Below are positions 45,836 through 59,647 of a stretch of DNA of 64,000 nucleotides, piece after piece. Position numbers and translations under genes: made by a program. The notes under the pieces were generated by a model, which was not told the origin of the DNA, made no database searches, and worked only from the letters and a program-made list of their open reading frames with translations. The DNA is taken from contig JBEKVN010000001.1 of assembly GCA_049513915.1 (NCBI GenBank), forward strand, positions 224,322-288,321, read 5' to 3'. Each line of letters opens with the position of its first letter. Within the stretch, counting starts at the first letter, position 1. This stretch comes from Candidatus Aminicenantales bacterium. Lineage in GTDB: Bacteria; Acidobacteriota; Aminicenantia; Aminicenantales; Saccharicenantaceae.

Positions 45836-47317
45836 ATGGTTACACAAGCGCAGAGCGGCCGGGTCGCGGCTTTGGTCGGAATCGCGGCGCTGGCGTTCAT
45901 TGCCGCGGGCTGTGAGACCCGCCAGGAATCGCTGACGAAAAGCCGGATCCGGAAAGTCGAAAAAGGCCTTCTCCGCGCCATCTACCTCAAGGGCCAGCGA
46001 CCCGAAAAACTGTCTCTCGAGGCCCGCCTGCCGTTCTACAAGGTCCCCGGCGTCGGCTTGGCTGTCATGGACAGGAACGGGCTCGAATGGGCCCGGGGAT
46101 ACGGCGTTCGCGACACGCACTCCCGCGAGCCCGTGACAACCGACACCATCTTCCAGGCTGGCGACCTCAGTCAGCCCGTCGCCGCCGCCGCGGCCCTCGA
46201 GCTCGTCGACAAGGGCGTCCTCGACCTCGGCGGCGATATTGAACCCCTTCTTCGCCGCCTGCTGCCTCCCGGCACCGTGCCTACTCCGCTGAACAAAGTC
46301 ACGATCCGGAAGATTTTGACCCATACCGATGGTCTCGCGCCGCTAGGCTTGCCCGGATATCCGCAGGGCCGAAAGCTTCCGCCTCTGGCGGACGTGCTCG
46401 CCGGCCGGGAATCCCCGGCTCCCGGTCCCGGGGAAACGTCCGGGCTTCCCGCCGTCGACACCAACACATCCGATGCCGGCTTGGCCGTTCTCCAGGCGCT
46501 TCTCGAGGAAACCACGGCCAAGACTTTCCCGGTCCTGGCGAACGAGACGGTTTTCGGACCGTTTGGGATGAAACACAGCACGTTCGACGTCCCGTTGCCG
46601 GAATTCATGAAGCTCAACGCGGCCTCGGGGCACGGTCGGGACGGGCGTCCCATCGAAGGAAAATGGCTTTCCTATCCGGCCGCGGCGGCCCGAGGTCTCT
46701 GGACGACTCCGTCGGACCTCGTCTCGTTCGCGGCCGGAGTCCTCCAGGCGGCGATGGGAAAAGAGGGCCATGTCCTGTCCGCGGGTCTGGCCCGGGCCAT
46801 GCTCACGTCCCAGGCCGGAAACCGGGGGCTCGGCTTCACCATCGACGGGGCCGGGACGGACGTCCGGTTCCACCTTGAAGGCCGGACCCGAGGCTACACC
46901 TGTTCGCTCGTCGTTTATCCATACAAAGGCCAGGGCGCCGTGGTCATGACGAACGGCGACAATGGGTTCCTGATTGCCGATGAGATCCTCCGGGCCGTTT
47001 CGGACGCCTACGAATGGCCGGATTTCAAGCCCCAGGAACGCCCCCTTTTCCGGCTCGACCCGTCGGTCTACCAGGATTACGTCGGCCGCTACCAGGTCAC
47101 CCCGGATTATGCCCTGGACGTGACCTACGAGAATTATTACCTGATCATCCGGCCCACCGGACAGGCGCCGACCAGGTTCTACGTGGAAAACCAGACCTTC
47201 TTTTTCTCCATCGACCCGTACGTCCGGATCCAGTTCCTGAGCGACGACAGAGGCCGGGTGACGGGCCTCATTCTCTGGCAGCAGGATTTTAAACAGGAAG
47301 CGAAGAAAATCGGCTGA
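45836..47317 (+). CDS. Beta-lactamase-fold lipoprotein with degenerate catalytic motifs plus C-terminal DUF3471-like domain
   Basis: Lipobox AAGC; IFQAGDLSQPV replaces the usual FQAASISKPV; TNTSDAG replaces YSGGG. Confidence 0.8.
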   Translation: MVTQAQSGRVAALVGIAALAFIAAGCETRQESLTKSRIRKVEKGLLRAIYLKGQRPEKLSLEARLPFYKVPGVGLAVMDRNGLEWARGYGVRDTHSREPVTTDTIFQAGDLSQPVAAAAALELVDKGVLDLGGDIEPLLRRLLPPGTVPTPLNKVTIRKILTHTDGLAPLGLPGYPQGRKLPPLADVLAGRESPAPGPGETSGLPAVDTNTSDAGLAVLQALLEETTAKTFPVLANETVFGPFGMKHSTFDVPLPEFMKLNAASGHGRDGRPIEGKWLSYPAAAARGLWTTPSDLVSFAAGVLQAAMGKEGHVLSAGLARAMLTSQAGNRGLGFTIDGAGTDVRFHLEGRTRGYTCSLVVYPYKGQGAVVMTNGDNGFLIADEILRAVSDAYEWPDFKPQERPLFRLDPSVYQDYVGRYQVTPDYALDVTYENYYLIIRPTGQAPTRFYVENQTFFFSIDPYVRIQFLSDDRGRVTGLILWQQDFKQEAKKIG

Positions 47318-47470
47318 TTTTCTCCTGGGCCTTGGCCTTGGCCTTGTACAGCGCCCCGTCATCTTTCTCGATGAGCTGCTCCACCGTTTTGGTCGGCGCC
47401 GCCGTCCAGGCGTACGATGCCCAGGTTGATCGTCAGGGAGAGCTGGCCGGTCGCCGTCACGGCGACGGCG
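47318..47470 (-). pseudogene. Frameshifted relic resembling the C-terminus of a GGDEF diguanylate cyclase
   Basis: Minus strand reads QLSLTINLGIVRLDG, then in a shifted frame TKTVEQLIEKDDGALYKAKAKA, resembling the GGDEF tail pattern TxSxG...lxxADxALYxAK. Confidence 0.5.
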
Positions 47471-47480
47471 CCCGGCTCGG

Positions 47481-50051
47481 TCACGCCGTACCGTCCGGGC
47501 CGGCGCTCGGACCTTGCTCCTGGACGAGGGAGTTGCTGACCTCGAGGAAGTGCTCCACGACCTCCGGGTCGAACTGCGTTCCCGAACACCGGATGATCTC
47601 TTTCACCGCGTAACGGTGGGAGGCGGCCTTGCGGTAAGGCCGTTCCGAGGTGATGGAGTCGTAGGTGTCGGCGACGGCCATGATCCGGGCCCCCAGAGGG
47701 ATTTCCCGCCCCTTCAATCCGTCGGGATAGCCCAAGCCGTCGTAGCGCTCGTGATGGGACCGCACGACCCTGGCGATGTCCTTGAGTTCGATGACGGGCT
47801 TTAGGATGCTTTCCCCGCGCGCCGGATGTTCCTTGATGAGGGCGAATTCCTGGTCGGTCAGCTTGCCTGGCTTGTTCAGGATGCTCTCCGGGACGGCGAT
47901 CTTGCCGACGTCGTGGAGGAGAGCGGCCAGTTCGAGGTCGCCGGCTTCCTTTTCACTGAAGCCCATGGTGCCGGCGATCTTCAGCGTGAATTCCGTGACC
48001 CGCGTCGAATGGTGCCGGGTGTACTCGTCTTTAGCGTCAATGGCGGAGGCCAGGGACTTGACCGTGGATAAGAAGAGGGAGCGCTGCTGGTCGACGAGGT
48101 CGGACGTCCGCTGCTTGAGATTCCGGTTGGCCATGGCCAGTTCCGATTCCACCCGGCGGATCCGGAGCAGGGCCCGGATCCTGGCCTTGAGCTCGACCGA
48201 GTCGAAAGGCTTGGAGATGTAATCGTCGGCGCCGGCCTTCATGCCCTCGTCCAGCATTTCCGCGCCCGTCCTGGCGGTGATCAGGATGATGGGAATGTGC
48301 TTCAGGGCCTGGTCAGACTTGACGGCCCGGGAAAACGCGTGCCCGTCCATCCCGGGCATCATGACATCGCAGAGGACGAGATCGGGGCCTTTCTCTTTCA
48401 TGATCGCCAGCCCTTTTTCCGCCGACGTCGCGAGCTCCAGGTCGAATTCGTCGCTGAGGAGCATCCTCATCAGCTTGAGGACCTCGGGATTGTCGTCGAT
48501 GGCCAAAATGAGGGCGTCGTGCGTTTTCGTGTTGGCAGCCCCCGCGTCTTGGATGTCCACATGCTCGAGGTCGACGAGATGGAGACGGCGAGAATCCGTG
48601 ACGATGTCCTGGACGCGCGGTTCCTGGGTGTCCGTGGTTCGTCTCCTGAGTCCGACCGAGTGTTCCTCCTGACGACGGTCGAGCGTGTCCGCGGGGAAAT
48701 GCTCCTCGCCTTTCATTAAGTCCACGATGAACCGGGAACCCTTGCCGAGCTCGCTCTCGACCCGGACGCTCCCTTGGTGAAGGCCGACGATCTCTCGGAC
48801 AAGGGAGAGCCCGATCCCGGTGCCTTCGTGGGCGCGGGACATGGATCCATCGACTTGCGAGAACCGGTCGAAAATGGACTCCAACATGTTCGCCGGGATG
48901 CCGATCCCCGTGTCCTCGACGATCAGGGAAACCGCGCGGTCCCGGTCCTCGATATACAGAGTGATTTTGCCGCCGCGCGGCGTGAACTTGAGGGCGTTCG
49001 AAAGGAGATTCAGGACGACTTTTTCGAACTGGTCCGGGTCGATGACGAGTTCGACATCGTGCGGGGGGTGCTGGAAGTAAAGGCGGATCTGCTTCTGGTC
49101 GGCCAGGGGCTTCACCGATCCGAGGAGAGAGTTTGTGAACTCGACGAAGTTGACTGTTTTGATCTTGAGCCGCATCTTCCCTTCCTCGAGCTTCGTCAGG
49201 TCGAGCAGGTTGTTGATCAGCTTGAGGAGCTTGTAGCCGTTGCGCTGCATGGTCTCCAGGGTGTCTTTAATCACGGGCGACAGGCGCCCCATCCGTCCTT
49301 CGAGGACGGCCTTGATCGGCGCCAGTATCAAGGTCAACGGCGTCCGGATCTCATGATTGACGTTTGCGAAAAACTGGGTCTTGAGTTCGTCCAGGCTCTT
49401 GAGCTTGGCGTTGGATTCCTGGAGCTTCGCCGTCGTCTCCTCGAGCTGGATCCGGCCGCGGAGTTCGCGGCGGCGGATGCTGTCCATAATATAGGAGCCA
49501 AAGCCCCCGACGATGATGATCGAGGTCAGGAAGAGAAGGTTGTTCGTTACAAACCGCCAGAATTGGATCTCTGCTCCGTCCACGACGATCGGTCTCTGGC
49601 CATGGAGAATTTTAAAGATACTCGGCACCGTGTACATGAGCCAGACGAGGCAGTAGAGGACGATGGTCTCTCGAAACGCCAACGGGATGAGGACCATCAT
49701 GCCCATGACGATGATGTTCAATCCCTGATAGTAGCTGGTCAGGAAGCCGCCCAGGATCTGAATCATGACCGCGATCCCCGCCGCGTCCACAAGGGCCAAG
49801 GTCAGGGCCAGATTCATGGTCCCTTGCGTGGTTTTGACTCTTCCCAGGAGGACGATGAGGACGCCGACAATGCCAACCACGACCATGCGGATGAGAAGGA
49901 AAGTTTTAAAGTAATGGGGTGTATAAATGGCGTCGAGACCGAGAAAGCTCAGGTAGAGGAAGATGCTCAGGATGGCGGCCAGCCGGGTCCGCCCTTTCAG
50001 GTCATATTCCTTATTCAGCCGTTCTTCGAATGCCATATCGCGGTTAGCCAT
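47481..50051 (-). CDS. Hybrid sensor: 6-TM domain - HisKA - HATPase - REC - HD-GYP phosphodiesterase (856 aa)
   Basis: H-box ANVNHEIRTPL, N/G1/F/G2 boxes, REC with DVMMPGMDG and SKPF, HD-GYP motifs LLHDVGK, HHERYDGLGYP and RPYRK; ATG 50051 overlaps the upstream stop. Confidence 0.92.
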   Translation of the reverse strand: MANRDMAFEERLNKEYDLKGRTRLAAILSIFLYLSFLGLDAIYTPHYFKTFLLIRMVVVGIVGVLIVLLGRVKTTQGTMNLALTLALVDAAGIAVMIQILGGFLTSYYQGLNIIVMGMMVLIPLAFRETIVLYCLVWLMYTVPSIFKILHGQRPIVVDGAEIQFWRFVTNNLLFLTSIIIVGGFGSYIMDSIRRRELRGRIQLEETTAKLQESNAKLKSLDELKTQFFANVNHEIRTPLTLILAPIKAVLEGRMGRLSPVIKDTLETMQRNGYKLLKLINNLLDLTKLEEGKMRLKIKTVNFVEFTNSLLGSVKPLADQKQIRLYFQHPPHDVELVIDPDQFEKVVLNLLSNALKFTPRGGKITLYIEDRDRAVSLIVEDTGIGIPANMLESIFDRFSQVDGSMSRAHEGTGIGLSLVREIVGLHQGSVRVESELGKGSRFIVDLMKGEEHFPADTLDRRQEEHSVGLRRRTTDTQEPRVQDIVTDSRRLHLVDLEHVDIQDAGAANTKTHDALILAIDDNPEVLKLMRMLLSDEFDLELATSAEKGLAIMKEKGPDLVLCDVMMPGMDGHAFSRAVKSDQALKHIPIILITARTGAEMLDEGMKAGADDYISKPFDSVELKARIRALLRIRRVESELAMANRNLKQRTSDLVDQQRSLFLSTVKSLASAIDAKDEYTRHHSTRVTEFTLKIAGTMGFSEKEAGDLELAALLHDVGKIAVPESILNKPGKLTDQEFALIKEHPARGESILKPVIELKDIARVVRSHHERYDGLGYPDGLKGREIPLGARIMAVADTYDSITSERPYRKAASHRYAVKEIIRCSGTQFDPEVVEHFLEVSNSLVQEQGPSAGPDGTA

Positions 50052-53000
50052 GGATGTTCCTCGCTCTGGCAATGACGACATACCCCTGCGGGGGGTCGCC
50101 GTACGACGGAATGACCCTGTCGATCTCCCAGCCCGCCCCCTCCAGCAGGCCTTCGAGTTTCTCCGGGTCGAAGAAGTCGAACGTTCCTGCTTCTTCCAGG
50201 TCCACCAGGGCCTGGGCGTCGTTAAGGAAGGACCGGAGGGACTCGAGCAGGAGGGGTTTAGGCCATTTCGGCGGCAGGGCCTCCTCGGGCATGGTTTCGA
50301 TTTTTTCCAGGAGCCGAGTGAAGGGGCCCGACGCGTCGGTATCCGGGCGCATGCTCGAAAGAACGAGCCGTCCTCCCGGCCTGATGATCCGCCGGACCTC
50401 GGCCAGGGTTTCTCCAGGATTGAAGATATAGGAAAGGACAAGGCTCATGAGGACCTTGTTAAACCAGCCCGCGCGGATCGGCAAATGGATGTTTCCTTCC
50501 AGGAACCCGGGGAGGGCGAGGCGGCGAAGAGTAGGCTTCTTGTTGGTCAACCTGCGGACGTAGCGAGCGGCTTGGTTGAAGTCCAGGATCGTCCGGTATT
50601 CATGGAGATCGAACTGCCGCTTCAACCAGTCGTCCAGTGCCGGGGTGATAGACTCGCCGCGGAGGATCCGGTGGAGCTTGGGGGAATAAGCCCCCTGGAT
50701 CTTGATGGCGCTCTCCAGGGTGAGGTTTTCGATCTTGTCGGCCATCTCCTCGAAGGTTCCGACCTCGCCGCCGAGGAACCTCTCGATGGGCAGGAAGCGG
50801 CTCAATTCGAGGTCCAGACCGAGGAGGTCGAAACGGCCCGGCTCCTGGAGGGCCTCGTAGCGGGCCGCGAGCTTCTGCCGGGCCTGGGTCATAGCATCCG
50901 GAATGAGGTCGGCAATCGTGATTTGGGCGGGCAGCTCGCGGCCGCTCTCCAGGAGATGTTCGACGAAGTTCCCCGTGCCTCCTCCCAGATCGAGCAGGCG
51001 GTCCGAGGATTGCAGTTCGAGGGCGAGGAGTTGGTCCTGCATCAGCTGCTGGTAATCGTCAGACATGGCCATGATGTCGAAACCCAACAAATTGTTTTCA
51101 CCCACCAGATAACGGTGCCAATAGCTCTTTCGGTTTCTGAGATTCCGCGGTGGAAGCCGGTCCTTCTCGGCCCGGCGCATGATCTCCATGCTCTTGCGGC
51201 CCGGCAAATTCGGCTGGATCATGGCCTTGTAGAGGAACCGGTGAATCAACGATGTGATGGTCCCGAACATCTTGAGCGCGTCCTTCGAGGTTCTGGCATT
51301 GTGCCCGATGGGGACGGAAATCACCTCGCGGGCGGCGTTGGCCTTGATGCTCATAACGTCACGGATGAACTCGGCTCTGACCCAGCTGTCGTATTGGCCA
51401 TAGATCCACGTGATCGGGATGTCGATATGGCGCATGTCTTCGCGGGCCTGCTCCAGAGTCGCCACCGAGTTCCGGACCCCGTCGCCGACGTAGGGATCGA
51501 CGTTGACCAAATTGCCCAGGACCGGCATAACGCCGAGCTTGATGCCGAGCTGAAAGTGTTCCAGGAAATCCAGGCCGCAATTGACGCGAACCATCAAATC
51601 GCGGAATTCCGGTGTTCCCATGCAGGCGATCCAATAATGGATGCGGTGCCGGTTGGCTTCCTCACGGAGGACGATCCGGGCGTCCAAAGCCGAAAAAGAA
51701 AACGTCAGGAGGATGACGGAGCTGGGCCGGAGCTTGGGGTTGAGGTCGAGCCAGTCAAGAATGGCGACGATGTCCGCTGCCCCCTGCGTGAAATTCGTGT
51801 TGAGCATCTCGTAGGGCGGTTCCGAAGCCTCCGGGTCCTTGTAGCTTTCGCCCTTTTTACGGATGCCGTCGAAACGGACGACCGCCAGCGGCCTCCCCAG
51901 CCGGCGGAAGTTTTCCGTCAGGGTCAGGGCGAGACCGAAAAGCGTTTCCTTGGTTTTTCCAAACGCCGGGGGGACAATGACGACGGGAACGGATTTCTCA
52001 TCTAAAGGAAGGGAAGAGTTGAGAAGGCCGACGATCTCCTCGCCCTGACGGGTTTCCACCCGGATGACTTCCGGCGTCGCGGCCCGCGCCGAGGGCTTCT
52101 CCGCGGATTCCTCCGTAGGGTAAACGAAGTCGAGCTCAGGCGTCTGGACGGATTGGATGCTCATCCGGCCGATCCCGAACTGGATCCCGTATTTCATGGC
52201 GTCGGGCGCGATCTCCGCGGCCCTCGCGACGTACCGGACCTCGCCGTTTTCCTTCCAGAGGACCTGATCGCCATCCATGATGGAGATGGTTTCGAGGGGT
52301 GTGCCCTTCAGGAGGACATGGGCGCGAGAGTCGGCGACAAAACTGACCCCGCCGGGGCTTATGTCCGTGATGCGGCCGGCGATGTTGCTGCTGAAAGGCG
52401 CGGGAAGAGGGATCTCGATCCGGAGGTTCCCGAACGGGCTGATCCTTTTTTCGGTCCGCTTTTCGGAGTAGAACATGACCCGCGGGTACAAGCAGACGAG
52501 CTTCTGGCCGTCGGGAGTGATCCGGGAAACCATCGTCTCGAAATTGTACGTGGCGTAGCCGATCTGGAATGAGACAAAGATCAGGTCTGAGGTTTTGAAC
52601 TTGACGTTCAGATCTTCACCTTTGAGCACGCACGTTAAGGGCGGCCGGATATCGGTGAACCCGAGGATCTCCGGATTCCGGGACTGAGCGTGGATGACCG
52701 CGACCTCCAATTCGGCTCTCATGGCTTCGCGGATGAGGGATTCGATCTTATAAGTGTCCGAAAACAGAACCATGTCCTCGGTCTTGAGGAAAGGGTATCG
52801 GACTTTGAGCTCCGCGAGGTCATGGACGGTGACGTAGTCAGAAAGAAACTGAAGGAGGGACCGGCGGCCTAGTTCGTCGATGGACGAGAATTCGACGCCG
52901 ACGCCTCCCTGATCGAGGTCCTGCCTGACGATTCGGCCGCTCACCGCGTAACTCCGTCCGTCCGGGAGGGCAATTTTCAGAGGGAGCGACGAGCCCTCGG

Positions 53001-53550
53001 GTAAAAAGGATACGGTCTTGAGGAACATCCCGTTTTCACTGAGGTTGACAACCCGGGCATCCGCCCCGTCTCCGGCCTCTATTTGGATGTCGGCGGAGCC
53101 GTTGATGTTGACCCTCATGGAGGTCCGCTTCTCGCGGGACTTTTGGGCGATAAGGAAACCGACCTTCTGCTTGAGCTCAGACGGATCCCGCGGTCTAGGG
53201 CAGATAAAATCGATACGGCCGTGGCTGGTCAAGTCCCCGGCTGGATCGTCCGTTGGAGAGTCCGTCAGCAGGATCTTGATGATCGCGTCGGATTTCTCAA
53301 ACATCTCGTGGAGAAAACGGAGGAGCTCAGTCCCCTTCATCCGGGGCAAATCCTCCTTGACGACGAGGACGTTGACCTCGGGGAGCGCCTTGATCAGCTT
53401 GATGGCTTCGATACCGCTGGTGGTCGTATAGACGGAGAACTGTTCGCGAAGGGCTCGCTGGAGTCTTTCAAGATAAGACAGGTCGTCTTCGACGAGGAGG
53501 ACAATGGGCTTAGCCCCGGGGGATTGCGTGCCGGCATCTGTCTGAGTCAT
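50044..53550 (-). CDS. Multidomain protein: atypical REC - PilZ - PilZN(YcgR-like) - PilZ - LuxD-like alpha/beta hydrolase - class I SAM methyltransferase
   Basis: PilZ motifs RTSMR..NLSENG and RTEKR..DISPGG; hydrolase motifs PAFGKTK, RFDG, FSFSA, YDSWV, GHNA; methyltransferase motifs LLDLGGGTGNF and RPGGRLVLS. Confidence 0.85.
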   Translation of the reverse strand: MTQTDAGTQSPGAKPIVLLVEDDLSYLERLQRALREQFSVYTTTSGIEAIKLIKALPEVNVLVVKEDLPRMKGTELLRFLHEMFEKSDAIIKILLTDSPTDDPAGDLTSHGRIDFICPRPRDPSELKQKVGFLIAQKSREKRTSMRVNINGSADIQIEAGDGADARVVNLSENGMFLKTVSFLPEGSSLPLKIALPDGRSYAVSGRIVRQDLDQGGVGVEFSSIDELGRRSLLQFLSDYVTVHDLAELKVRYPFLKTEDMVLFSDTYKIESLIREAMRAELEVAVIHAQSRNPEILGFTDIRPPLTCVLKGEDLNVKFKTSDLIFVSFQIGYATYNFETMVSRITPDGQKLVCLYPRVMFYSEKRTEKRISPFGNLRIEIPLPAPFSSNIAGRITDISPGGVSFVADSRAHVLLKGTPLETISIMDGDQVLWKENGEVRYVARAAEIAPDAMKYGIQFGIGRMSIQSVQTPELDFVYPTEESAEKPSARAATPEVIRVETRQGEEIVGLLNSSLPLDEKSVPVVIVPPAFGKTKETLFGLALTLTENFRRLGRPLAVVRFDGIRKKGESYKDPEASEPPYEMLNTNFTQGAADIVAILDWLDLNPKLRPSSVILLTFSFSALDARIVLREEANRHRIHYWIACMGTPEFRDLMVRVNCGLDFLEHFQLGIKLGVMPVLGNLVNVDPYVGDGVRNSVATLEQAREDMRHIDIPITWIYGQYDSWVRAEFIRDVMSIKANAAREVISVPIGHNARTSKDALKMFGTITSLIHRFLYKAMIQPNLPGRKSMEIMRRAEKDRLPPRNLRNRKSYWHRYLVGENNLLGFDIMAMSDDYQQLMQDQLLALELQSSDRLLDLGGGTGNFVEHLLESGRELPAQITIADLIPDAMTQARQKLAARYEALQEPGRFDLLGLDLELSRFLPIERFLGGEVGTFEEMADKIENLTLESAIKIQGAYSPKLHRILRGESITPALDDWLKRQFDLHEYRTILDFNQAARYVRRLTNKKPTLRRLALPGFLEGNIHLPIRAGWFNKVLMSLVLSYIFNPGETLAEVRRIIRPGGRLVLSSMRPDTDASGPFTRLLEKIETMPEEALPPKWPKPLLLESLRSFLNDAQALVDLEEAGTFDFFDPEKLEGLLEGAGWEIDRVIPSYGDPPQGYVVIARARNIHG

Positions 53551-53689: not shown

Positions 53690-53718
53690 AATCTAGTATA
53701 CAAATGTAGGCCTGTCAA
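53690..53718 (-). promoter_or_regulatory. Sigma70-type promoter TTGACA-N17-TAGATT for the PilZ-synthase/sensor operon
   Basis: -35 at 53718-53713 overlaps the aldolase stop; -10 at 53695-53690. Confidence 0.65.
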
Positions 53719-54476
53719 GAGTTTCTTGGCTTCAGGCTTCTTACGATCTCGGCGGCCGCGCTCGAAAACAGGCCGATATCCACCCCCGAGCACACCAGAC
53801 TGTAGCCCTCGGCCAGGGCCTTCGCGGAGCCCGCAATATCGCCCGAAAAGATGCCGACCGGCGTCTTTCTCAGGGAACAGGCTGTCCGGACGGCTGCGAG
53901 GGCATTCCTCACGTCTCCATCCTGGATGCAGCCCGGCTTGCCCAGGCTCGCCGAAAGGTCATAAGGCCCGATGAAGACGGCGTCCACCCCCGGAACTGCC
54001 AGGATATCGTCGATGGCCCTGACGGCATCGATGTGCTCCACTTGGATGATAACCGCCGTCGTCCGGTTGGCCGTGTCCACTTGCTCCTGGAAGCGGACGC
54101 CATAAAGGTTGGCCCTGGAGAAACCGACGCCCCGGCCCCCCTCCGGCGGGTACTTGGCCCAGTGGACGGCCCGGGCCGCTTCCCCCGCCGAATTGACGCG
54201 CGGGATGATGACGCCCGCCGCGCCGGAGTCCAGGGCCTTCTTGATCCACATCTCTTCGTTCTCCGGGACGCGGACGACCGGGGCGCAGGGTTCGCGGACC
54301 GCCTGGATCATGCGGACGAGATCCCCCGGACCGATCGGCCCGTGTTCCATATCGAGGAAGAGCCAGTCGAGGCCGGCCGCGCTCGCGATTTCGGCCAGTT
54401 CGGAAGCCGGCAGCGTGAGAATGGTCCCGACGAGCCTATCGCCCCGCAGAAGCCGCTCACGGAAACTTTCGCCCAT
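53715..54476 (-). CDS. HpcH/HpaI aldolase family (2-keto-3-deoxy-sugar acid aldolase-like)
   Basis: DMEHGP, VVRVP, ALDSGA, VIIQVEH and FIGPYDLS motifs. Confidence 0.92.
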   Translation of the reverse strand: MGESFRERLLRGDRLVGTILTLPASELAEIASAAGLDWLFLDMEHGPIGPGDLVRMIQAVREPCAPVVRVPENEEMWIKKALDSGAAGVIIPRVNSAGEAARAVHWAKYPPEGGRGVGFSRANLYGVRFQEQVDTANRTTAVIIQVEHIDAVRAIDDILAVPGVDAVFIGPYDLSASLGKPGCIQDGDVRNALAAVRTACSLRKTPVGIFSGDIAGSAKALAEGYSLVCSGVDIGLFSSAAAEIVRSLKPRNS

Positions 54477-54504
54477 GTTCTTCGCTCCTTCCGCCCGCGC
54501 CCGC

Positions 54505-55416
54505 TTACCGGTTGAAGCTCCGGCCGATGAAGCTCAGGCCGTCGACGATCCCGGTGCGCCAGTACACCCAGGTGTGGGCACCGTCGCGGACCCGGAATTC
54601 GTGCGGAATTTTCCGGTCGTTGAGGAGGATGTGGAGGGCGCAATTGCCCTTGATGAGAAAGTCGTCGTCGCCGCAGTCGATATAATAGCGGACCTTCTTC
54701 AGGGAATCCTCCGGCAGGGTCCTGGCAAGCTCGAGCGGACTGTACATCCGGAAATGCGGCGTGAGACGGTTTTTGCCGGCGAGGCCGGGCCCGAGCACCG
54801 GGCCGACCACCTTGTCCCACGTGTCCTGCTTCATCGACACGATTTCATCATCCGGCCAGACGGCGGCGCTGAAAGCGGCGCAGGCCGCGAAGACATCCGG
54901 GTGGCGCAGCGCGTAGACGAGAGTGCCCCATCCGCCCATGGACAATCCGGCGATCCCGCGGAACTCCCGCTCGGGCCGCGTCCGGTAGGTGGAATCGATG
55001 TGGGGGATGAACTCCTGGATGAACATGTCCTCGAAACGGACCTTGTTCTGATAGTCGTTGACATACCAGGTGACGCCGCCGTCGGGCATGACGATGATCA
55101 TCGGGGGAATCTCCCGGTCCGCGATGGCCCGGTCCGCGGCCATGTTGACCTCGCCGAACTGGACCCAGCCCGACTCGTTGTCCGTGTAACCGTGAAGCAG
55201 GTAGACGACGGGGTAGCGGCGCGTGGAGGTCGCGTAGTCCGCCGGCAGGTATACCGCGTAATGGACATCCCGGCCGAGGATCGCGCTGGTCAGGTGGAGA
55301 CCCTCCAGGACTTGGCCCATGGCCGGCCCCTCCCGGGAATAGAGCGGAAGGCCGGTCGCGATGGCCATGACCAGGACCGTTGCGAAAGCCGCGATCAACG
55401 CTTTGGAGTTCTTCAT
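54505..55416 (-). CDS. Secreted esterase family alpha/beta hydrolase
   Basis: YLLHG, GLSMGG, DCGDDD and DGAHTW motifs; signal peptide. Confidence 0.9.
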   Translation of the reverse strand: MKNSKALIAAFATVLVMAIATGLPLYSREGPAMGQVLEGLHLTSAILGRDVHYAVYLPADYATSTRRYPVVYLLHGYTDNESGWVQFGEVNMAADRAIADREIPPMIIVMPDGGVTWYVNDYQNKVRFEDMFIQEFIPHIDSTYRTRPEREFRGIAGLSMGGWGTLVYALRHPDVFAACAAFSAAVWPDDEIVSMKQDTWDKVVGPVLGPGLAGKNRLTPHFRMYSPLELARTLPEDSLKKVRYYIDCGDDDFLIKGNCALHILLNDRKIPHEFRVRDGAHTWVYWRTGIVDGLSFIGRSFNR

Positions 55417-55528
55417 GCTGGCCTCCTTCCCGGCTCCGCGTCCCTTCGGGCTTTCGGCCGGCGCGAGCCGACGACGGGGGAACGCCTGAGGCCGGTCAGG
55501 GAAATATAGTGGCGGACGGGGCCCGGCG

Positions 55529-56215
55529 TCAAGACGGGTTCTTTTTCTTGGTGCTGAGCGAGATACCGCCGCCGGTCGAGGTGTCGATGACCGTTTCCAT
55601 GTAGTCGAGCCCGCGGACGTAGGCGAGGAAATCCCGGATGCCCTGCATGAAGCCGAGGCTGACGACGTTGTGGACGGCGAAACAGCCGCCGACCTCGAGC
55701 TTGGGCAGGAGGGCCTTGAAATAATTCAGGGTCCAGTTCTTGTCGGCGTCGATGAAGACGAAATCGAAGGGGCCGGGAAGCTCCTGGACGAGCTCGTGGG
55801 CGTCGGCCAGGCGGGCGTCGATGCGGTCCTCGAGCCCAGAGGCCTTGAAATTCTGGACGGCGCGGAGGTGGCGGAACTCGTCGATCTCGATCGTCACGAG
55901 CCGGCCTCCGGTCTTGCTCAGCGCCCAAGCCTGCCAGATCCCGGAATGGCCGGTCGACGTCCCGATCTCCAGGGCCCTGGTATAGCGGCGCTTAAGGATG
56001 AGGTCGTGCAGGAACCGGCCGTCGGCCTCCGTGACGTTTTCCTCGCGCCACTGGTCTTTTTGCGACTGGAGGAAGTTCCAAACCCTATCGTCGAGGGCCT
56101 TCGAGTCGGGGGCAGGGGTTTTTTGCTGAGGGGAAGCCGTCCCGGCCGGCCGCACGACAAGGGGCGTGAGCGCAAGGAGAACCGTCAAAAGAAGGGCCCG
56201 AACGCTGGATCTCAT
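55529..56215 (-). CDS. Class I SAM-dependent O-methyltransferase with signal-peptide-like N-terminus
   Basis: LEIGTSTGHS, FDFVFIDADK and AVHNV motifs. Confidence 0.88.
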   Translation of the reverse strand: MRSSVRALLLTVLLALTPLVVRPAGTASPQQKTPAPDSKALDDRVWNFLQSQKDQWREENVTEADGRFLHDLILKRRYTRALEIGTSTGHSGIWQAWALSKTGGRLVTIEIDEFRHLRAVQNFKASGLEDRIDARLADAHELVQELPGPFDFVFIDADKNWTLNYFKALLPKLEVGGCFAVHNVVSLGFMQGIRDFLAYVRGLDYMETVIDTSTGGGISLSTKKKNPS

Positions 56216-56401: not shown

Positions 56402-57970
56402 CTACTTTTTCGCGATGGCGTCCTTGATGTCCTTGACGAGCTTGTCGTACTGCTGGGTCGAGAACCCTTCATACTTCGCGGCGATGGGTTTGACGAGCTC
56501 GACCGCTTTTTCGGCGTACGTCAGGGCCTCATCATTCTTTTTCAGCTTGAAGAGGAGCTTGGCCAGCGTGTAATTATTGTAGTAGTCGGAGGTGAGCTCG
56601 ACCGACTTCCTGGCCGCTTCCAGGGCGCTTTCGAGGTTCATGCCCTCTTGATTCTTGCCCTGCCGGCTCCAGAACGACGCGTAGCTCGCGAGGATGTTCT
56701 GGTCCCCCATGTTGGCCTTGATGAAGGCCGGTCCGTATATGGCCAGGGCCTTCTCGGGCTTGTTCAGCTTGGCGTAGATTCCGGCCACGGTTTGGAGCGT
56801 GTACCACTGGGAGGCGGGGGCCATCTTGACCGCCGTGTCTGCGGCGACCTCGACGCTGTCCAGGTTTTTCCCCTGCTCGATCCAGAAATTTGCGTACCCG
56901 GTCAGGGCATAAACGGCGTTCGAAACGTAGCCGTCGATGAAATCCTTGCCGTATTCCTCGTCGGCCTTGGCCGCGTCGCCCTTGAGGATGTACAGCTGGG
57001 CCAGGTTCTGGACGTATTGGGGATTGCGCGGGTAGCCCTGGATCTCCTTGACTTTTTCGGCCAGTTCGATGCCCTTGTCGAGAGGCGCCTTCTGCTTGAC
57101 GATCCACTCGACATAAGAATTGAGGGCTGAGGCGTCCTGGGGATACTTGGCGGTATATTCTTCAAGGAATTTCTGCGCGTCGGCCTTGCCTGCGGCATCG
57201 CCAGGAGCATTGTACTGATAATACTGGGCCAGATAGGAATAGGCTTGCTTGACGAGCGGGCTCTGGGGGTACTTGGCGATGAAATTCTTAAGCGGTGCCG
57301 CGTCGGGCTTGCGGGCGTAGATGCTCTCCTGGCCGAGCTCGAACTCGGCGGCCTGGGTGTACGGGACCGTGGCCTTCATGTACTCAAAAGTGTAATTGCC
57401 CGCCTTCCCCTGGGGGTCGATGGCGATGACCTTCTGGTAGAGCTCCTTGGCCTTTTCCGGCATCGTGTAGCGGCTGGAGGTCTTCTGGGCGAGCTTGAAA
57501 ATGACCGGAACGTTCGTCGGCTCCTTGGCGTACTTCGCCGTGAGCGCCTTGTAGGTCTCCTCGCCGGTCAGGACCTTCTGGAGCTTTTCCAGGAACTTGT
57601 CGGCGGGAGGGCCGTAGCCGACGATCCAGTCGACTTCGTTGCCGTCCTTGTCGACGAAGAGCTCGGTCGGCGTGGCCTGGACGTTGAATTTCGTGTAGAT
57701 CGCGTCACCGATCTTGTCGCCGCGGCTGGCGCGGTACACGATGAAGTTGTTGTTGAGGAAATCGGCGTACTTAGGGTTGTTGTAGAACTGCTGGACCAGC
57801 AGTTTACAGGCCCCTCAGCCACTTGAGAAAAAATCGACGAGGATGAGCTTGTTTTCCTTTTTGGCCTGGGCCAGCGCCTCGTCGAACGGTCCGCTCATGA
57901 TCTTGGCGGTTTGGGCCGTGGCGAACGAGGCGATGAGCAGCAGGCCGGCGATCGCGGTCAGCTTTTTCAT
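56402..57970 (-). CDS. Putative selenoprotein: signal peptide - thioredoxin-like domain (UGAC, Sec at codon 52) - TPR repeats (522 aa)
   Basis: RBS GGAGGA, ATG 57970; LVDFFSSG-TGA(57817-57815)-GAC continues in frame into the tracked 445-aa ORF; cis-Pro-like ATPT motif; SECIS-like hairpin. Confidence 0.85.
57786..57804 (-). promoter_or_regulatory. Bacterial SECIS-like hairpin AACTGCTG-GTC-CAGCAGTT
   Basis: Starts 10 nt after the in-frame TGA; perfect 8-bp stem with GU in the loop. Confidence 0.75.
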
Positions 57971-58087: not shown

Positions 58088-59647
58088 CTACTTCTTGATG
58101 TCCTCGCCCTTCTCCTTGGCCATGGCGGTTTTGATTTCCTGAACCCGGGCCTCGTAGGATTTGATGGCGAAACCGGGTCTCCGCTTGGCCGACTCCCGGG
58201 CCAAGGCCAGGGCGCGTTCGGCCGATTTGAGGGCCTCGTCGTAGTTCTTGAGCTTGAGCAGGATCTGGGCCTGGATGTCAAAATACGTGAGCTGGGGTTG
58301 ATATTCGATCAATTTCCGGACCGCATCCAGGGCGCTTTCCAGGTTTTTCCCTTGCTGGTTCCAATACCATGCATATGCGTAAAGGGTATCGCTCTTGTCC
58401 AGGTTCTTTTGAATATAATCCGGGCCGAACATCTCGAGGGCCTTGTCCGGCCTATTCAGCTTGGCGTAGATCGTGGCGGCTGTCTGGCGGAGATAAGGCG
58501 TATCGGGCTGGACCTTAACGGCGAGCTCGATGGCCTCGACGGCCTGGTCGAGGTTGGTGTCCCGGTCGTTCCAGAAACCGGCATAGCTGCTCAGAAGGTA
58601 GGAGATCTCGGATTTCTGGTCCTTGAGGAATTGCTTCCCGAAGATTTCCTCCGTTTTGGCCTTATCGTCCTTGAGCCAATACAGTTCGGCGCGGCTCCGG
58701 AGAAAGTAGGGGTCGACATACTCCGAAGGGAGGCTGGGGATCTTTCCGGCGAGCTCGAGGCCCCGGTCGAGGGGCTCCTTGTCCTTGATAATCCGCCGGA
58801 CATAGGAGTCCAGGACCCAAGGGTCGTCCGGGTAATTGGCGACATAGTCTTCAAAGAACTTTTGGGCTTGGTCTTTCGGAGCGTAGTAGCCGTAGTACGT
58901 GCTCAGCCAGGAATATCCCGTCTTGACCAGCTGGCTCTGTGGATACTTGCGGAGAAACGCCCACATCAGGTCGGGGGCTGAGCTGAGCCCCATGGCGGCT
59001 TTCCTGGCCATGATGAACTCGGCATATTCGGTGTAAGGCACCCGGACCTTGGGATAATCGACGTCGGTCAGGCCGGCCTTGCCTTCCGGGTCGAGCGCGA
59101 CGATCTGCCTGTAAAGCTCGTCGGCCTTGGCCGCGGTCGAAAATTTCTGGTCGTATTTTCTGGCCAGCTTGAAGATGACTTCGATATTTTTCGGATCCTT
59201 GGCGTAAAGGACGGACAGGGACTTGTATGTGTCGACCCCTGCGAGGGATTTTTGGATTCTCTCGAAATACACCTCGGCCGGAGGGCTGTAGCCCACGATC
59301 CAATCGATCTCATTGCCGTTCTTGTCGAGGATAAGGACGGTCGGCGTTGACTGGATTCCAAATCTGGTGAAGATGGACTCCCCGGTCAGATCGCCCCGGG
59401 TGGCCCGGTAGAGGACGAATGTCTTGCCCAGGAAATCGGCGTACTTGGCGCTTTCATAAACCTGCTGGACCAGCAGGTCGCAGCTCCCTCAGCCGCCGCG
59501 CTGGTGGAAATCGACGAGGATGGGCTTGTTTTGCTTCTTGGCCAGGGCCAGGGCCTCGTCGAAGGGCCCCTTCAGGAATGTCGGGGTCTGGGCGGAAGCC
59601 AGGGAAGCGATGAGGAGCAGTCCGGCGAGCGCCGTGAGTTTTTTCAT
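58088..59647 (-). CDS. Putative selenoprotein paralog: signal peptide - thioredoxin-like domain (UGSC, Sec at codon 53) - TPR repeats (519 aa)
   Basis: ATG 59647; ILVDFHQRGG-TGA(59491-59489)-GSC is in frame with the tracked 402-aa ORF; N-terminus is highly similar to the paralog; STPT motif. Confidence 0.85.
59460..59478 (-). promoter_or_regulatory. Bacterial SECIS-like hairpin ACCTGCTG-GTC-CAGCAGGT
   Basis: Same 10-nt spacing from TGA; compensatory A-T to C-G pair change relative to the paralog. Confidence 0.75.

Follow-up and report, generated by a model that had tools for sequence, protein, structure and literature searches.

What function could be fulfilled by a protein that joins two PilZ domains to an alpha/beta hydrolase and a class I SAM methyltransferase? 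This question is raised by a gene on the minus strand of an Aminicenantes genome, located in a 64,000-nucleotide stretch of DNA that was analyzed as a whole and is referred to here as the window. A first-pass annotation made from the sequence had proposed that the gene product releases an acyl chain and methylates it under c-di-GMP control. The underlying domain reading (PilZ, LuxD-like hydrolase, and methyltransferase) was right according to Pfam, motifs, and fold comparison, and all of the motifs named for these three parts were found at their places. The sequence is best explained by a protein that would both bind c-di-GMP as a receptor and catalyze two consecutive steps.

Identity and architecture of the gene

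The open reading frame has no internal stops and exactly the boundaries given in Table 1. More than 250 full-length orthologues with 60 to 84% identity were found, which rules out a chance open reading frame and indicates a real gene. The first-pass annotation knew of no characterized protein with this architecture, and no paper describing a combination of PilZ, LuxD-like hydrolase, and methyltransferase was found in the literature.

Table 1. Features of the locus, with positions in the window and residue numbers of the encoded protein
Feature	Position	Strand	Basis
Target gene, 1168 aa: aspartate-less REC / PilZ / middle domain / PilZ / LuxD-like hydrolase / class I methyltransferase	50044..53550	-	ORF, Pfam
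Receiver-fold domain, aa 17-129	53164..53502	-	Pfam, 30.9 bits
PilZ domain 1, aa 140-236; R142xxxR146, N169xS171xxG174	52843..53133	-	Pfam, motifs
Middle domain, aa 241-358, directly ahead of PilZ domain 2	52477..52830	-	No Pfam or PDB sequence match
PilZ domain 2, aa 359-465; R365xxxR369, D396xS398xxG401	52156..52476	-	Pfam, motifs
LuxD-family alpha/beta hydrolase, aa 495-790; Ser618 (TFSFS elbow), Asp721, His750	51181..52068	-	PF02273, AF2, Foldseek
Class I SAM methyltransferase, aa 830-1168; motif I LDLGGGTG 853-860, acidic Asp881	50047..51063	-	Pfam, AF2, Foldseek
Helical insertion of ~105 aa within the methyltransferase, aa 916-1020	50491..50805	-	Split Pfam matches; model helices 121-199
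Partner gene: 6-TM sensor / HisKA / HATPase / REC / HD-GYP	47481..50051	-	Domain profiles, translation
Vestige of a 7TM-PAS-GAF-GGDEF cyclase gene (its C-terminal end)	47316..47466	-	Two tblastn matches, not in the same frame (73% and 40% identity)
Putative sigma-70-like promoter, TTGACA-17-TAGATT, 10/12	53690..53718	-	Consensus match only

The receiver-fold and PilZ region

Two stretches of the protein matched the PilZ family (PF07238; 65.1 bits against a threshold of 22.5). The first contains RTSMR (142-146) and NLSENG (169-174) and the second RTEKR (365-369) and DISPGG (396-401). Across 55 orthologues, the arginines were present in all 55 and the motifs overall in 53 to 55, and the motifs were also found in 114 of 119 distant forms of about 830 aa. 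The earlier claim of two PilZ domains that both carry the canonical c-di-GMP motifs is hence well founded, and to judge from these residues both domains look competent for c-di-GMP binding.

The domain between the two PilZ domains is conserved among Aminicenantes, and Spirochaete homologues can be aligned over it. It had no match in Pfam, including PF07317 and PF12945, and a PDB profile search returned no sequence match, YcgR and PlzD included; when it was compared with Escherichia coli YcgR by hhalign, only the PilZ junction was aligned, with a probability of 0.6%. The sole basis of the label "PilZN-like" that it had received is its position ahead of the second PilZ domain.

The match of the N-terminal domain to the receiver family PF00072 was marginal (30.9 bits; gathering threshold, 30.2), and one orthologue reached 51.7 bits. 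The DDD pocket, Thr96, and Arg119-Pro120 are kept. The phospho-acceptor position is occupied by Lys65, and this column contains N36, S9, D6, T2, and K1 in the 55-orthologue set; it was placed by its spacing to the conserved P-x-M-x-G, so that a shifted Asp67 is a possible reading. By this alignment, the domain is an aspartate-less receiver in most family members. The designation "REC" is thus upheld by a profile match above threshold, but the missing phospho-acceptor aspartate (mostly Asn in the orthologues) argues against the phospho-control that it implies. A phospho-link from kinase to enzyme, as the gene pair described below would suggest, is unlikely here because the receiver lacks this residue. 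The fold is probably not phosphorylated in this protein and would more likely serve as a docking or dimerization module.

The LuxD-like hydrolase

The full-length protein matched PF02273 (Acyl_transf_2, LuxD family) weakly over residues 530 to 737 (17.9 bits), and the hydrolase domain scanned alone reached 21.7 bits against a threshold of 20.3. Among 34 relatives that belong to the protein family of the target, 33 matched PF02273 (best E-value, 2e-7), and LuxD (1THT) was the sole hydrolase found in the PDB profile search. The comparison of the hydrolase model (AF2, pLDDT 80.8) with LuxD, suggested in the first-pass annotation, bore out the resemblance: 1THT was the top Foldseek match (E 2e-14, TM 0.74/0.79, 316 aligned columns), and the runners-up had TM values of 0.57 to 0.63. 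Feruloyl esterases and lipases were also strong matches, with esterases ranking just below LuxD, so that an esterase role is possible.

The Ser-Asp-His triad, initially called plausible, lies in FSFSA (617-621), YDSWV (720-724), and IGHNA (748-752). Ser618, Asp721, and His750 were each present in 55/55 orthologues and, across 245 diverse members, in 243, 245, and 245 sequences, respectively. Asp721 was aligned with LuxD Asp211, and the Ser618 elbow and His750 were assigned to the LuxD triad positions by inspection and spacing. The likeness to LuxD stands at the level of family and fold but does not extend to orthology, as the protein scored 15.1 bits on the NCBIfam LuxD equivalog NF052253, whose cut-off is 420, and lacks a lux context; no lux or fatty-acid genes were found near it within the window. 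At about 15% identity, the hydrolase is, by sequence, a distant PF02273 member and not a LuxD orthologue.

The methyltransferase

The C-terminal domain matched several Pfam families above threshold, and the class I methyltransferase match was split into residues 834 to 909 and 988 to 1068. The glycines of motif I, Asp881, and Tyr1041 are invariant or nearly so across the 245 diverse members, and Ser1065, Asp1070, and Asp1072 are also invariant or nearly invariant. The AF2 model had a pLDDT of 85.4, and its best Foldseek matches were the small-molecule methyltransferases Coq5, MitM, PsoF, PhzM, and RebM. These matches were generic (TM relative to the query 0.33 to 0.44) and cannot separate O-, C-, and N-methylation, nor a small-molecule from a protein substrate. 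Pfam, the intact LDLGGGTG and Asp881, and the fold all confirm the class I SAM methyltransferase that had been recognized, and by its motifs it looks active. The near invariance of the hydrolase triad and the SAM motifs in the 245 members argues for catalysis. The helical insertion is missing from the Myxococcales-type forms of about 830 aa, according to the architectures of family representatives, and may be a substrate lid.

An identity as the malonyl-ACP O-methyltransferase BioC was rejected, since the equivalog scored 27.9 bits against a cut-off of 184.95 and matched only the N-terminal methyltransferase motifs. No PhcB model appeared among the best 25 of 38 NCBIfam matches. Weak sequence matches included phosphatidylethanolamine N-methyltransferase and cyclopropane-fatty-acid-synthase-like proteins.

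Gene neighborhood and distribution

The ATG of the partner kinase, at 50051, overlaps the stop of the target gene by 8 nt (ATGGCTAA). Its sensor is almost wholly membrane-embedded, with six helices and short loops, and its HD-GYP domain, of the c-di-GMP phosphodiesterase type, is well defined by the HD_5 profile (149.4 bits) and by LHDVGK and HHERYDGLGYP in the translation. From the membrane region onwards, it is 36% identical to a kinase from a Myxococcales-type locus that has a precomputed MASE8 match. A homologous multi-pass membrane hybrid histidine kinase is located beside or near the core in every context examined: it directly follows the target gene in about 50 Aminicenantes loci, adjoins the ~830-aa forms in 5/5 distinct contexts, and in two Spirochaete loci lies downstream with two genes in between. 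One of these intervening genes encodes an adenylating enzyme that best matches long-chain fatty-acid-CoA ligases and the other a B12 radical-SAM enzyme that best matches lipid-modifying families, both below family cut-offs; this context favors acyl chemistry. The kinase gene of Myxococcales-type loci is followed by a receiver-kinase gene.

An intact 7TM-PAS-GAF-GGDEF cyclase is the third gene, after the kinase, in 28 related loci, and locus comparison shows a GGDEF cyclase to be the predicted ancestral third gene of the cluster. The target genome has 6 to 7 GGDEF genes. The putative promoter lies ahead of the target gene, in a gap of 164 nt. The overlap with the kinase-HD-GYP gene and the position of the cyclase make c-di-GMP control of the enzyme more likely.

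A search for the distribution of the architecture, as had been proposed, revealed a large family that comprises, beyond the Aminicenantes-type orthologues, proteins of Myxococcales and Spirochaetia. The core of PilZ, hydrolase, and methyltransferase forms 345 clusters at 50% identity scoring below 1e-30 and occurs in at least three phyla. The size and spread of the family, its fully retained catalytic and ligand-binding residues, and its constant kinase partner point to a coherent, unstudied signaling module and not to a one-off fusion. Its occurrence is patchy (5/9 genomes in the order and 0/292 elsewhere in the phylum sample), which fits an accessory signaling module better than core lipid metabolism.

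Possible function

Together, PilZ motifs, enzyme motifs, and synteny give good support to the predicted c-di-GMP control of a bifunctional acyl-processing enzyme. Our best explanation, which we hold tentatively, is that the hydrolase and the methyltransferase act in sequence on an acyl chain, with c-di-GMP as the gate and coupling to the kinase. Ser618 of the hydrolase would accept the chain from acyl-ACP or acyl-CoA as the thioester carrier, and the acid would then be freed in the manner of LuxD; the fused methyltransferase would methylate the released acid, most simply to a methyl ester. By analogy with PhcB, we infer that the product may be a fatty-acid methyl ester. Binding of c-di-GMP to the PilZ domains would turn the output on or off, the neighboring multi-pass kinase would read the hydrophobic product or the resulting membrane state, and its REC-HD-GYP output would alter c-di-GMP and close a feedback loop. 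Alternatively, the kinase might regulate the enzyme or be acted on by it, and not sense its product. A bolder version, which we consider improbable, is that the family is the source of methylated, methyl-ester-like acyl signals of a class not known before, whose production is gated by c-di-GMP from within the cell and which are sensed by the membrane-embedded kinase of the neighboring gene (MASE8-like in relatives), with c-di-GMP breakdown as the kinase output in the Aminicenantes lineage and a phosphorelay in Myxococcales.

The two activities might also oppose each other. Methylation and demethylation are paired by BioC with BioH/BioG on pimeloyl-ACP and by LCMT-1 with PME-1 on PP2A. It is conceivable, but rather unlikely, that the methyltransferase makes a carboxyl methyl ester, the hydrolase removes it, and c-di-GMP sets the balance, the substrate being a small molecule or, in a CheR/CheB-like adaptation, the partner kinase. 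In favor of this reading, alpha/beta hydrolases are common methylesterases, esterases were the next best structural matches after LuxD, relatives are annotated in some sources as "pimeloyl-ACP methyl ester carboxylesterase," and the N-terminal methyltransferase motifs match BioC weakly. Against it, the acyl-ACP thioesterase LuxD is both the best match of the hydrolase and the only one at family level, and the BioC score is far below the cut-off of 185. A role in modifying the kinase would agree with the strict association of the gene with a single kinase family, and control of a methyltransferase by a PilZ protein has a precedent in MapZ/CheR (bioRxiv 10.1101/814665), but the protein has no CheR-like or CheB-like domain, and its top methyltransferase fold matches are natural-product and quinone methyltransferases.

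The membrane-embedded partner sensor would also suit a c-di-GMP-controlled deacylation and methylation of a membrane lipid or precursor, in which the kinase monitors the membrane state and not a diffusible signal. Lipases among the hydrolase fold matches, the lipid methyltransferases and cyclopropane-type proteins among the weak matches, and the Spirochaete B12 radical-SAM neighbor are consistent with this remodeling, but the enzyme itself lacks a membrane segment, the lipid-methyltransferase matches are weak and non-specific, and the patchy spread speaks against it; we regard it as still less probable. That the catalytic domains are inactive relics and the protein a mere c-di-GMP-dependent adaptor for the kinase could be argued from the loss of the catalytic Asp from the receiver, but is very improbable in view of the essentially invariant triad and SAM-binding motifs.

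Most of the PilZ effectors known so far act on motility, polysaccharide secretion, or transcription. If our preferred reading of sequential acyl processing is true, c-di-GMP would gain small-molecule or lipid synthesis as a further output through a PilZ-gated thioesterase and methyltransferase. If the methylated acyl product is a signal, Aminicenantes, Spirochaetia, and Myxococcales would have a direct coupling of cell-to-cell signaling to the turnover of a second messenger. The family may also reveal the type of ligand of the MASE8-like sensor domain.

Comparison with known systems

LuxD is the myristoyl-ACP thioesterase/acyl transferase of the lux system (PF02273; PDB 1THT). The target hydrolase resembles it at threshold level in PF02273, is structurally closest to it along almost the full length of the domain, and shares the elbow type (small-x-S-x-S) and the order and spacing of Ser, Asp, and His. 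It differs in its low identity, in its fusion to PilZ domains and a methyltransferase, and in having no luxCE or luciferase genes nearby. Enzymes fused to or controlled by PilZ domains include BcsA cellulose synthase, Alg44, the Myxococcus xanthus acetyltransferase protein PixB, and CheR under MapZ, and known PilZ layouts comprise tandem PilZ as well as PilZ preceded by an extra domain. The target likewise has canonical RxxxR and [D/N]xSxxG PilZ domains beside a catalytic domain, but its catalytic partner is new for PilZ. With BioC and BioH/BioG it has in common a class I methyltransferase and an alpha/beta hydrolase, which in the target would likewise act on one acyl-carrier-bound substrate, along with the weak BioC motif match, whereas its hydrolase is LuxD-like and not BioH-like, its BioC score is well under the cut-off, and its context is signaling and not biotin.

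PhcB is the Ralstonia methyltransferase that makes a fatty-acid methyl ester quorum signal, and PhcS is a sensor kinase. In the phc operon, the methyltransferase gene comes first, then that of the sensor kinase, and then that of the receiver-kinase (PMC8578825). In the target locus, the SAM methyltransferase gene is likewise directly followed by a membrane sensor kinase gene, and Myxococcales-type loci continue with the receiver-kinase gene, which is an analogy of gene order only; if a thioesterase acts first and a methyltransferase second, the simplest product would also be a fatty-acid methyl ester. In the phc papers compared here, PhcB is described only as a methyltransferase; the target has PilZ domains and a hydrolase besides, and the predicted output is c-di-GMP turnover through HD-GYP in place of PhcA. 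The analogy to PhcB gains support from the conservation of the pair of enzyme and membrane kinase across three phyla in an order similar to that of phcB-phcS-phcR.

Domain architecture and conservation of the family

The target gene is an uninterrupted frame whose product was predicted to carry a receiver (REC) domain, two PilZ domains on either side of a middle domain, a LuxD-like hydrolase, and a class I methyltransferase (see the table). More than 250 relatives were found in the 5.8 billion proteins searched. The best 120 of these are all full length (1165 to 1203 amino acids, 63 to 83% identity), and those that are named belong to MAGs of Candidatus Aminicenantes or Acidobacteriota. The frame is a real gene, and its source is an Aminicenantes bacterium. 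NCBIfam returned distant matches only, namely, TIGR02266 PilZ and weak hits to BioC, UbiE, and LuxD, and public annotations call the family just "PilZ domain-containing protein" or "UbiE methylase/CheY-like." Conservation was counted in an alignment of 55 orthologues, in which each motif named in the first-pass annotation was located at its given residue and found to be conserved. We consider the domain-level reading to be highly probable.

Coordinates of the predicted domains and genes
Feature	Sequence	Position	Strand	Remark
Target gene	window	50044-53550	minus	1168 codons
REC	target	residues 17-129		Pfam 30.9 bits, marginal
PilZ, two stretches	target			Pfam 65 bits
Middle domain	target	residues 241-358
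Acyl_transf_2 (LuxD family)	target	residues 530-737		Pfam, sub-threshold in full-length scan
Class I methyltransferase	target	residues 834-909 and 988-1068 (split)		Pfam
Partner kinase	window	47481-50051	minus	next gene 3' of target
Cyclase remnant	window	47316-47466	minus
HpcH/HpaI aldolase, PF00756 esterase, PF01596 O-methyltransferase	window	53715-56215	minus	upstream of target
Paralogous TPR proteins	window	56402-57739; 58088-59296	minus
Third PilZ domain	Spirochaete locus L062	4167-4540		RRHIR ... NISRTG
Adenylating and radical-SAM genes	Spirochaete loci	L060 3522-6538; L062 7799-10503		between enzyme and kinase genes
Deaminase genes	Myxococcales-type loci	L065 6880-7887; L066 3576-4598; L068 4105-5103; L069 6149-6673; L070 5890-6906		5' of enzyme gene

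The family is large. A hydrolase-methyltransferase profile run against 1.84 billion cluster representatives yielded 904 clusters at E <1e-3 and 345 at <1e-30, and in the best 149 clusters the two enzymes are always C-terminal and the N-terminal part is variable. Close relatives have REC-PilZ-X-PilZ in this part, and forms with some 1050 to 1200 amino acids have PilZ-PilZ or PilZ-X-PilZ; the commonest forms, which have ~830 amino acids and are without the methyltransferase insertion, have about 115 residues plus one PilZ domain. This short form has more than 500 relatives, the few named ones being from Myxococcales or Myxococcota MAGs, and an RxxxR...[D/N]xSxxG pair lies near residues ~114-126 in 114 of 119 such proteins. 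Across 245 diverse members, the catalytic Ser is present in 243 and the Asp and His in all 245; the motif I glycines, Asp881, Tyr1041, Ser1065, Asp1070, and Asp1072 are likewise essentially invariant. Selection thus acts family-wide on the two catalytic domains and on the c-di-GMP site. The idea that the protein is a catalytically dead scaffold is contradicted by the invariant active-site residues.

In the sample of the window's phylum, the gene occurs in five of nine genomes of its own order and in 0 of 292 elsewhere, and the source genome has one copy. A tblastn search of plasmids gave zero matches, and PADLOC indicated no link to defence systems. The Aminicenantes MAG CAWEJF01 carries the whole enzyme-plus-kinase locus twice (L029 and L033); the copies lie on separate contigs and are preceded by the same genes.

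The hydrolase and methyltransferase domains

The likeness to LuxD proposed in the first-pass annotation turned out to be a correct lead, with Foldseek, the PDB profile, phmmer, and PF02273 in agreement. PDB sequence searches with the hydrolase were weak, returning 1THT alone (E 0.9 with the single sequence, E 0.04 with the profile), so that a fold search was needed to decide; the family profile against all PDB sequences retrieved 1THT as the sole hydrolase (E 0.04), and a PDB search with the relative P0152 gave methyltransferases and no hydrolase. The AlphaFold2 model of residues 491-805 (pLDDT 80.8, pTM 0.85) has 1THT, the Vibrio harveyi myristoyl-ACP thioesterase LuxD, as its best PDB match (E 2e-14, TM 0.74/0.79, 316 columns), followed by feruloyl esterases and a thermophilic lipase with TM values of 0.57 to 0.63 relative to the query. 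The phmmer alignment places Asp721 on LuxD Asp211 within a common D-x-W-V motif, and S618, D721, and H750 are each found in 55/55 orthologues. Scanned alone, the domain passes PF02273 (21.7 against a gathering score of 20.3), and 33 of 34 family members match this family and no other hydrolase family. A LuxD orthologue was ruled out by the score of 15 bits with the NCBIfam LuxD model, for which the cut-off is 420. The hydrolase belongs to the LuxD family as a distant member, and its triad is intact.

The class I methyltransferase of the first-pass annotation was confirmed by Pfam, by the presence of LDLGGGTG and D881 in all 55 orthologues, and by a Rossmann-type model of residues 800-1168 (pLDDT 85.4), which has a helical segment at its N-terminus and, between strands 3 and 4, ~100 inserted residues that are also helical. 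Among PDB folds it comes closest to the small-molecule methyltransferases Coq5, MitM, PsoF, PhzM, RebM, and DnrK, with low TM values relative to the query (0.33 to 0.44) that are generic for class I and do not single out an acceptor. The model is compatible with a small-molecule acceptor.

PilZ domains, receiver, and middle domain

Both PilZ domains retain their motifs in the 55 orthologues: R142 and R146 are found in all, N169 in 51, S171 in 54, and G174 in 55 for PilZ1, and R365 and R369 in all, D396 in 53, S398 in 54, and G401 in 55 for PilZ2. As for the receiver that the first-pass annotation had named, the profile match stood, if marginally, whereas the phospho-acceptor Asp is replaced by Lys in the target. 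The acidic pocket DDD 21-23, Thr96, and Lys/Arg119-Pro120 are all kept. The phospho-acceptor column, placed by motif spacing four residues before the conserved proline and not by a structure, holds Asn in 36 orthologues, Ser in 9, Asp in 6, Thr in 2, and Lys in 1, and we read the receiver as probably aspartate-less in most family members. The Spirochaete homologue of L062 has a third motif-complete PilZ domain in place of the aspartate-less receiver of Aminicenantes.

The middle domain had zero Pfam matches, and a PilZ-middle-PilZ profile returned PilZ structures alone from the PDB. The "PilZN-like" reading of the first-pass annotation thus corresponds to a likeness of position alone, the PilZN domain occupying the equivalent place in YcgR-type proteins; hhalign of the middle region with E. 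coli YcgR gave an alignment of negligible probability that was confined to the junction into PilZ2.

The partner kinase and the gene neighbourhood

In the partner kinase, HisKA, HATPase, REC, and HD-GYP domains come after six membrane helices, and the protein carries the HD and HHExxDGxGYP motifs. Its ATG overlaps the target stop codon by 8 nt (ATGGCTAA), and a promoter-like TTGACA-17-TAGATT lies within the 164-nt gap 5' of the target, so that both genes look like one unit; the overlap shows a predicted translational coupling of the target to an HD-GYP hybrid kinase. Species-representative genomes supplied 61 Aminicenantes-type loci, and in these the kinase directly follows the target wherever the flank suffices, even in lineages with an N-terminal half that is only 38 to 53% identical. 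In 28 of these loci the third gene encodes a 690-amino-acid 7TM-PAS-GAF-GGDEF diguanylate cyclase. The window retains two short out-of-frame pieces of the C-terminal end of this cyclase, which match its residues 639-660 (73% identity) and 664-688 (40%) in tblastn; the gene has evidently been deleted in this lineage. The intact cyclases and this remnant point to an ancestral cluster with cyclase, phosphodiesterase, and PilZ-bearing enzyme side by side. Six to seven GGDEF genes are found elsewhere in the genome.

The upstream aldolase, esterase, and O-methyltransferase genes are syntenic in closer relatives only, each being variably absent; given this variable presence and their location beyond the promoter-like gap, they probably do not belong to the module. 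Of the two paralogous TPR proteins, the one at 56402-57739 begins within a thioredoxin-like domain (its Pfam Thioredoxin_2 match covers profile positions 68-103 only), which suggests that translation in fact begins farther upstream, before an in-frame stop.

Two Spirochaete MAGs possess a PilZ-PilZ-X-PilZ-hydrolase-methyltransferase gene (33 to 34% identical), followed by an adenylating enzyme, a B12-binding radical-SAM enzyme, and then a kinase-REC-HD-GYP gene of the same type. The adenylating enzyme best matches long-chain fatty-acid-CoA ligases and the radical-SAM enzyme HpnJ and lipid-modifying families, in both cases below family cut-offs; neither has a counterpart in the window or the Aminicenantes loci.

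Six Myxococcales-type loci, two of them near-identical, provided five distinct contexts, in all of which a HisKA-HATPase-REC-HATPase hybrid kinase adjoins the enzyme. In four contexts the gene right after this kinase encodes REC and GAF domains, usually along with a kinase domain; in L070 a gene of this type comes two genes later. A precomputed MASE8 match exists on the adjacent kinase in three contexts; it was not reproduced on rescanning the L069 kinase N-terminus, and Pfam did not detect MASE8 in the window's kinase. The MASE8 link is drawn from BLASTP homology between the window's kinase and one Myxococcales-type kinase (36% identity over 647 residues, from the membrane region on) and from a weak match in L062. 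The pairing of the enzyme with this membrane kinase family is therefore old and conserved, and the output domain of the kinase varies. In the Myxococcales-type loci, a dCMP/cytidine-deaminase gene is located immediately 5' of the enzyme gene; in most its product carries a fused AAA_17/18 kinase-like domain, and it matches an anti-phage dCTP deaminase model weakly (133 bits versus a cut-off of 400).

Possible function and relation to known systems

We class the target as a putative PilZ-controlled enzyme. Binding of c-di-GMP to the PilZ domains would control its activity; the hydrolase would cleave an acyl group off its thioester carrier in the manner of LuxD, and the fused methyltransferase would then methylate the product, a methyl ester being the simplest outcome. 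The membrane-embedded kinase may respond to this hydrophobic product, or to the effect that it has on the membrane, and would then adjust c-di-GMP via HD-GYP. With moderate confidence, we see the protein as an enzyme regulated by c-di-GMP whose substrate is an acyl compound or a small molecule; the full sequence of thioesterase, methyl ester, and kinase feedback is put forward tentatively, and a diffusible quorum-type signal as the product is unlikely.

Alternatively, hydrolase and methyltransferase could oppose each other as a methyl-ester switch whose substrate would be a small molecule or the kinase. Such a switch would suit the high rank that esterases take in the fold search, and also the strict pairing with the kinase, but an acyl-ACP thioesterase is the sole family-level match, and nothing CheR- or CheB-like was found. 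Lipid remodelling by the two enzymes would agree with a membrane sensor, yet it is hard to reconcile with an enzyme that is soluble and patchily distributed.

Full-text literature searches, which took in the PilZ domain survey of Galperin and Chou and a census of the PilZ proteins of M. xanthus, found no description of the architecture of the target. The component domains are all of known kinds; what is new is their combination, its conservation, and the fixed kinase partner. The family, with a product that we infer, is of genuine interest for research on c-di-GMP. A comparison is offered by the phc system, in which PhcS senses the methyl 3-hydroxymyristate that PhcB makes (PMC8578825). The phcB-phcS-phcR genes have the same order of methyltransferase, membrane kinase, and receiver-kinase, an analogy of organization only (PMC8578825).
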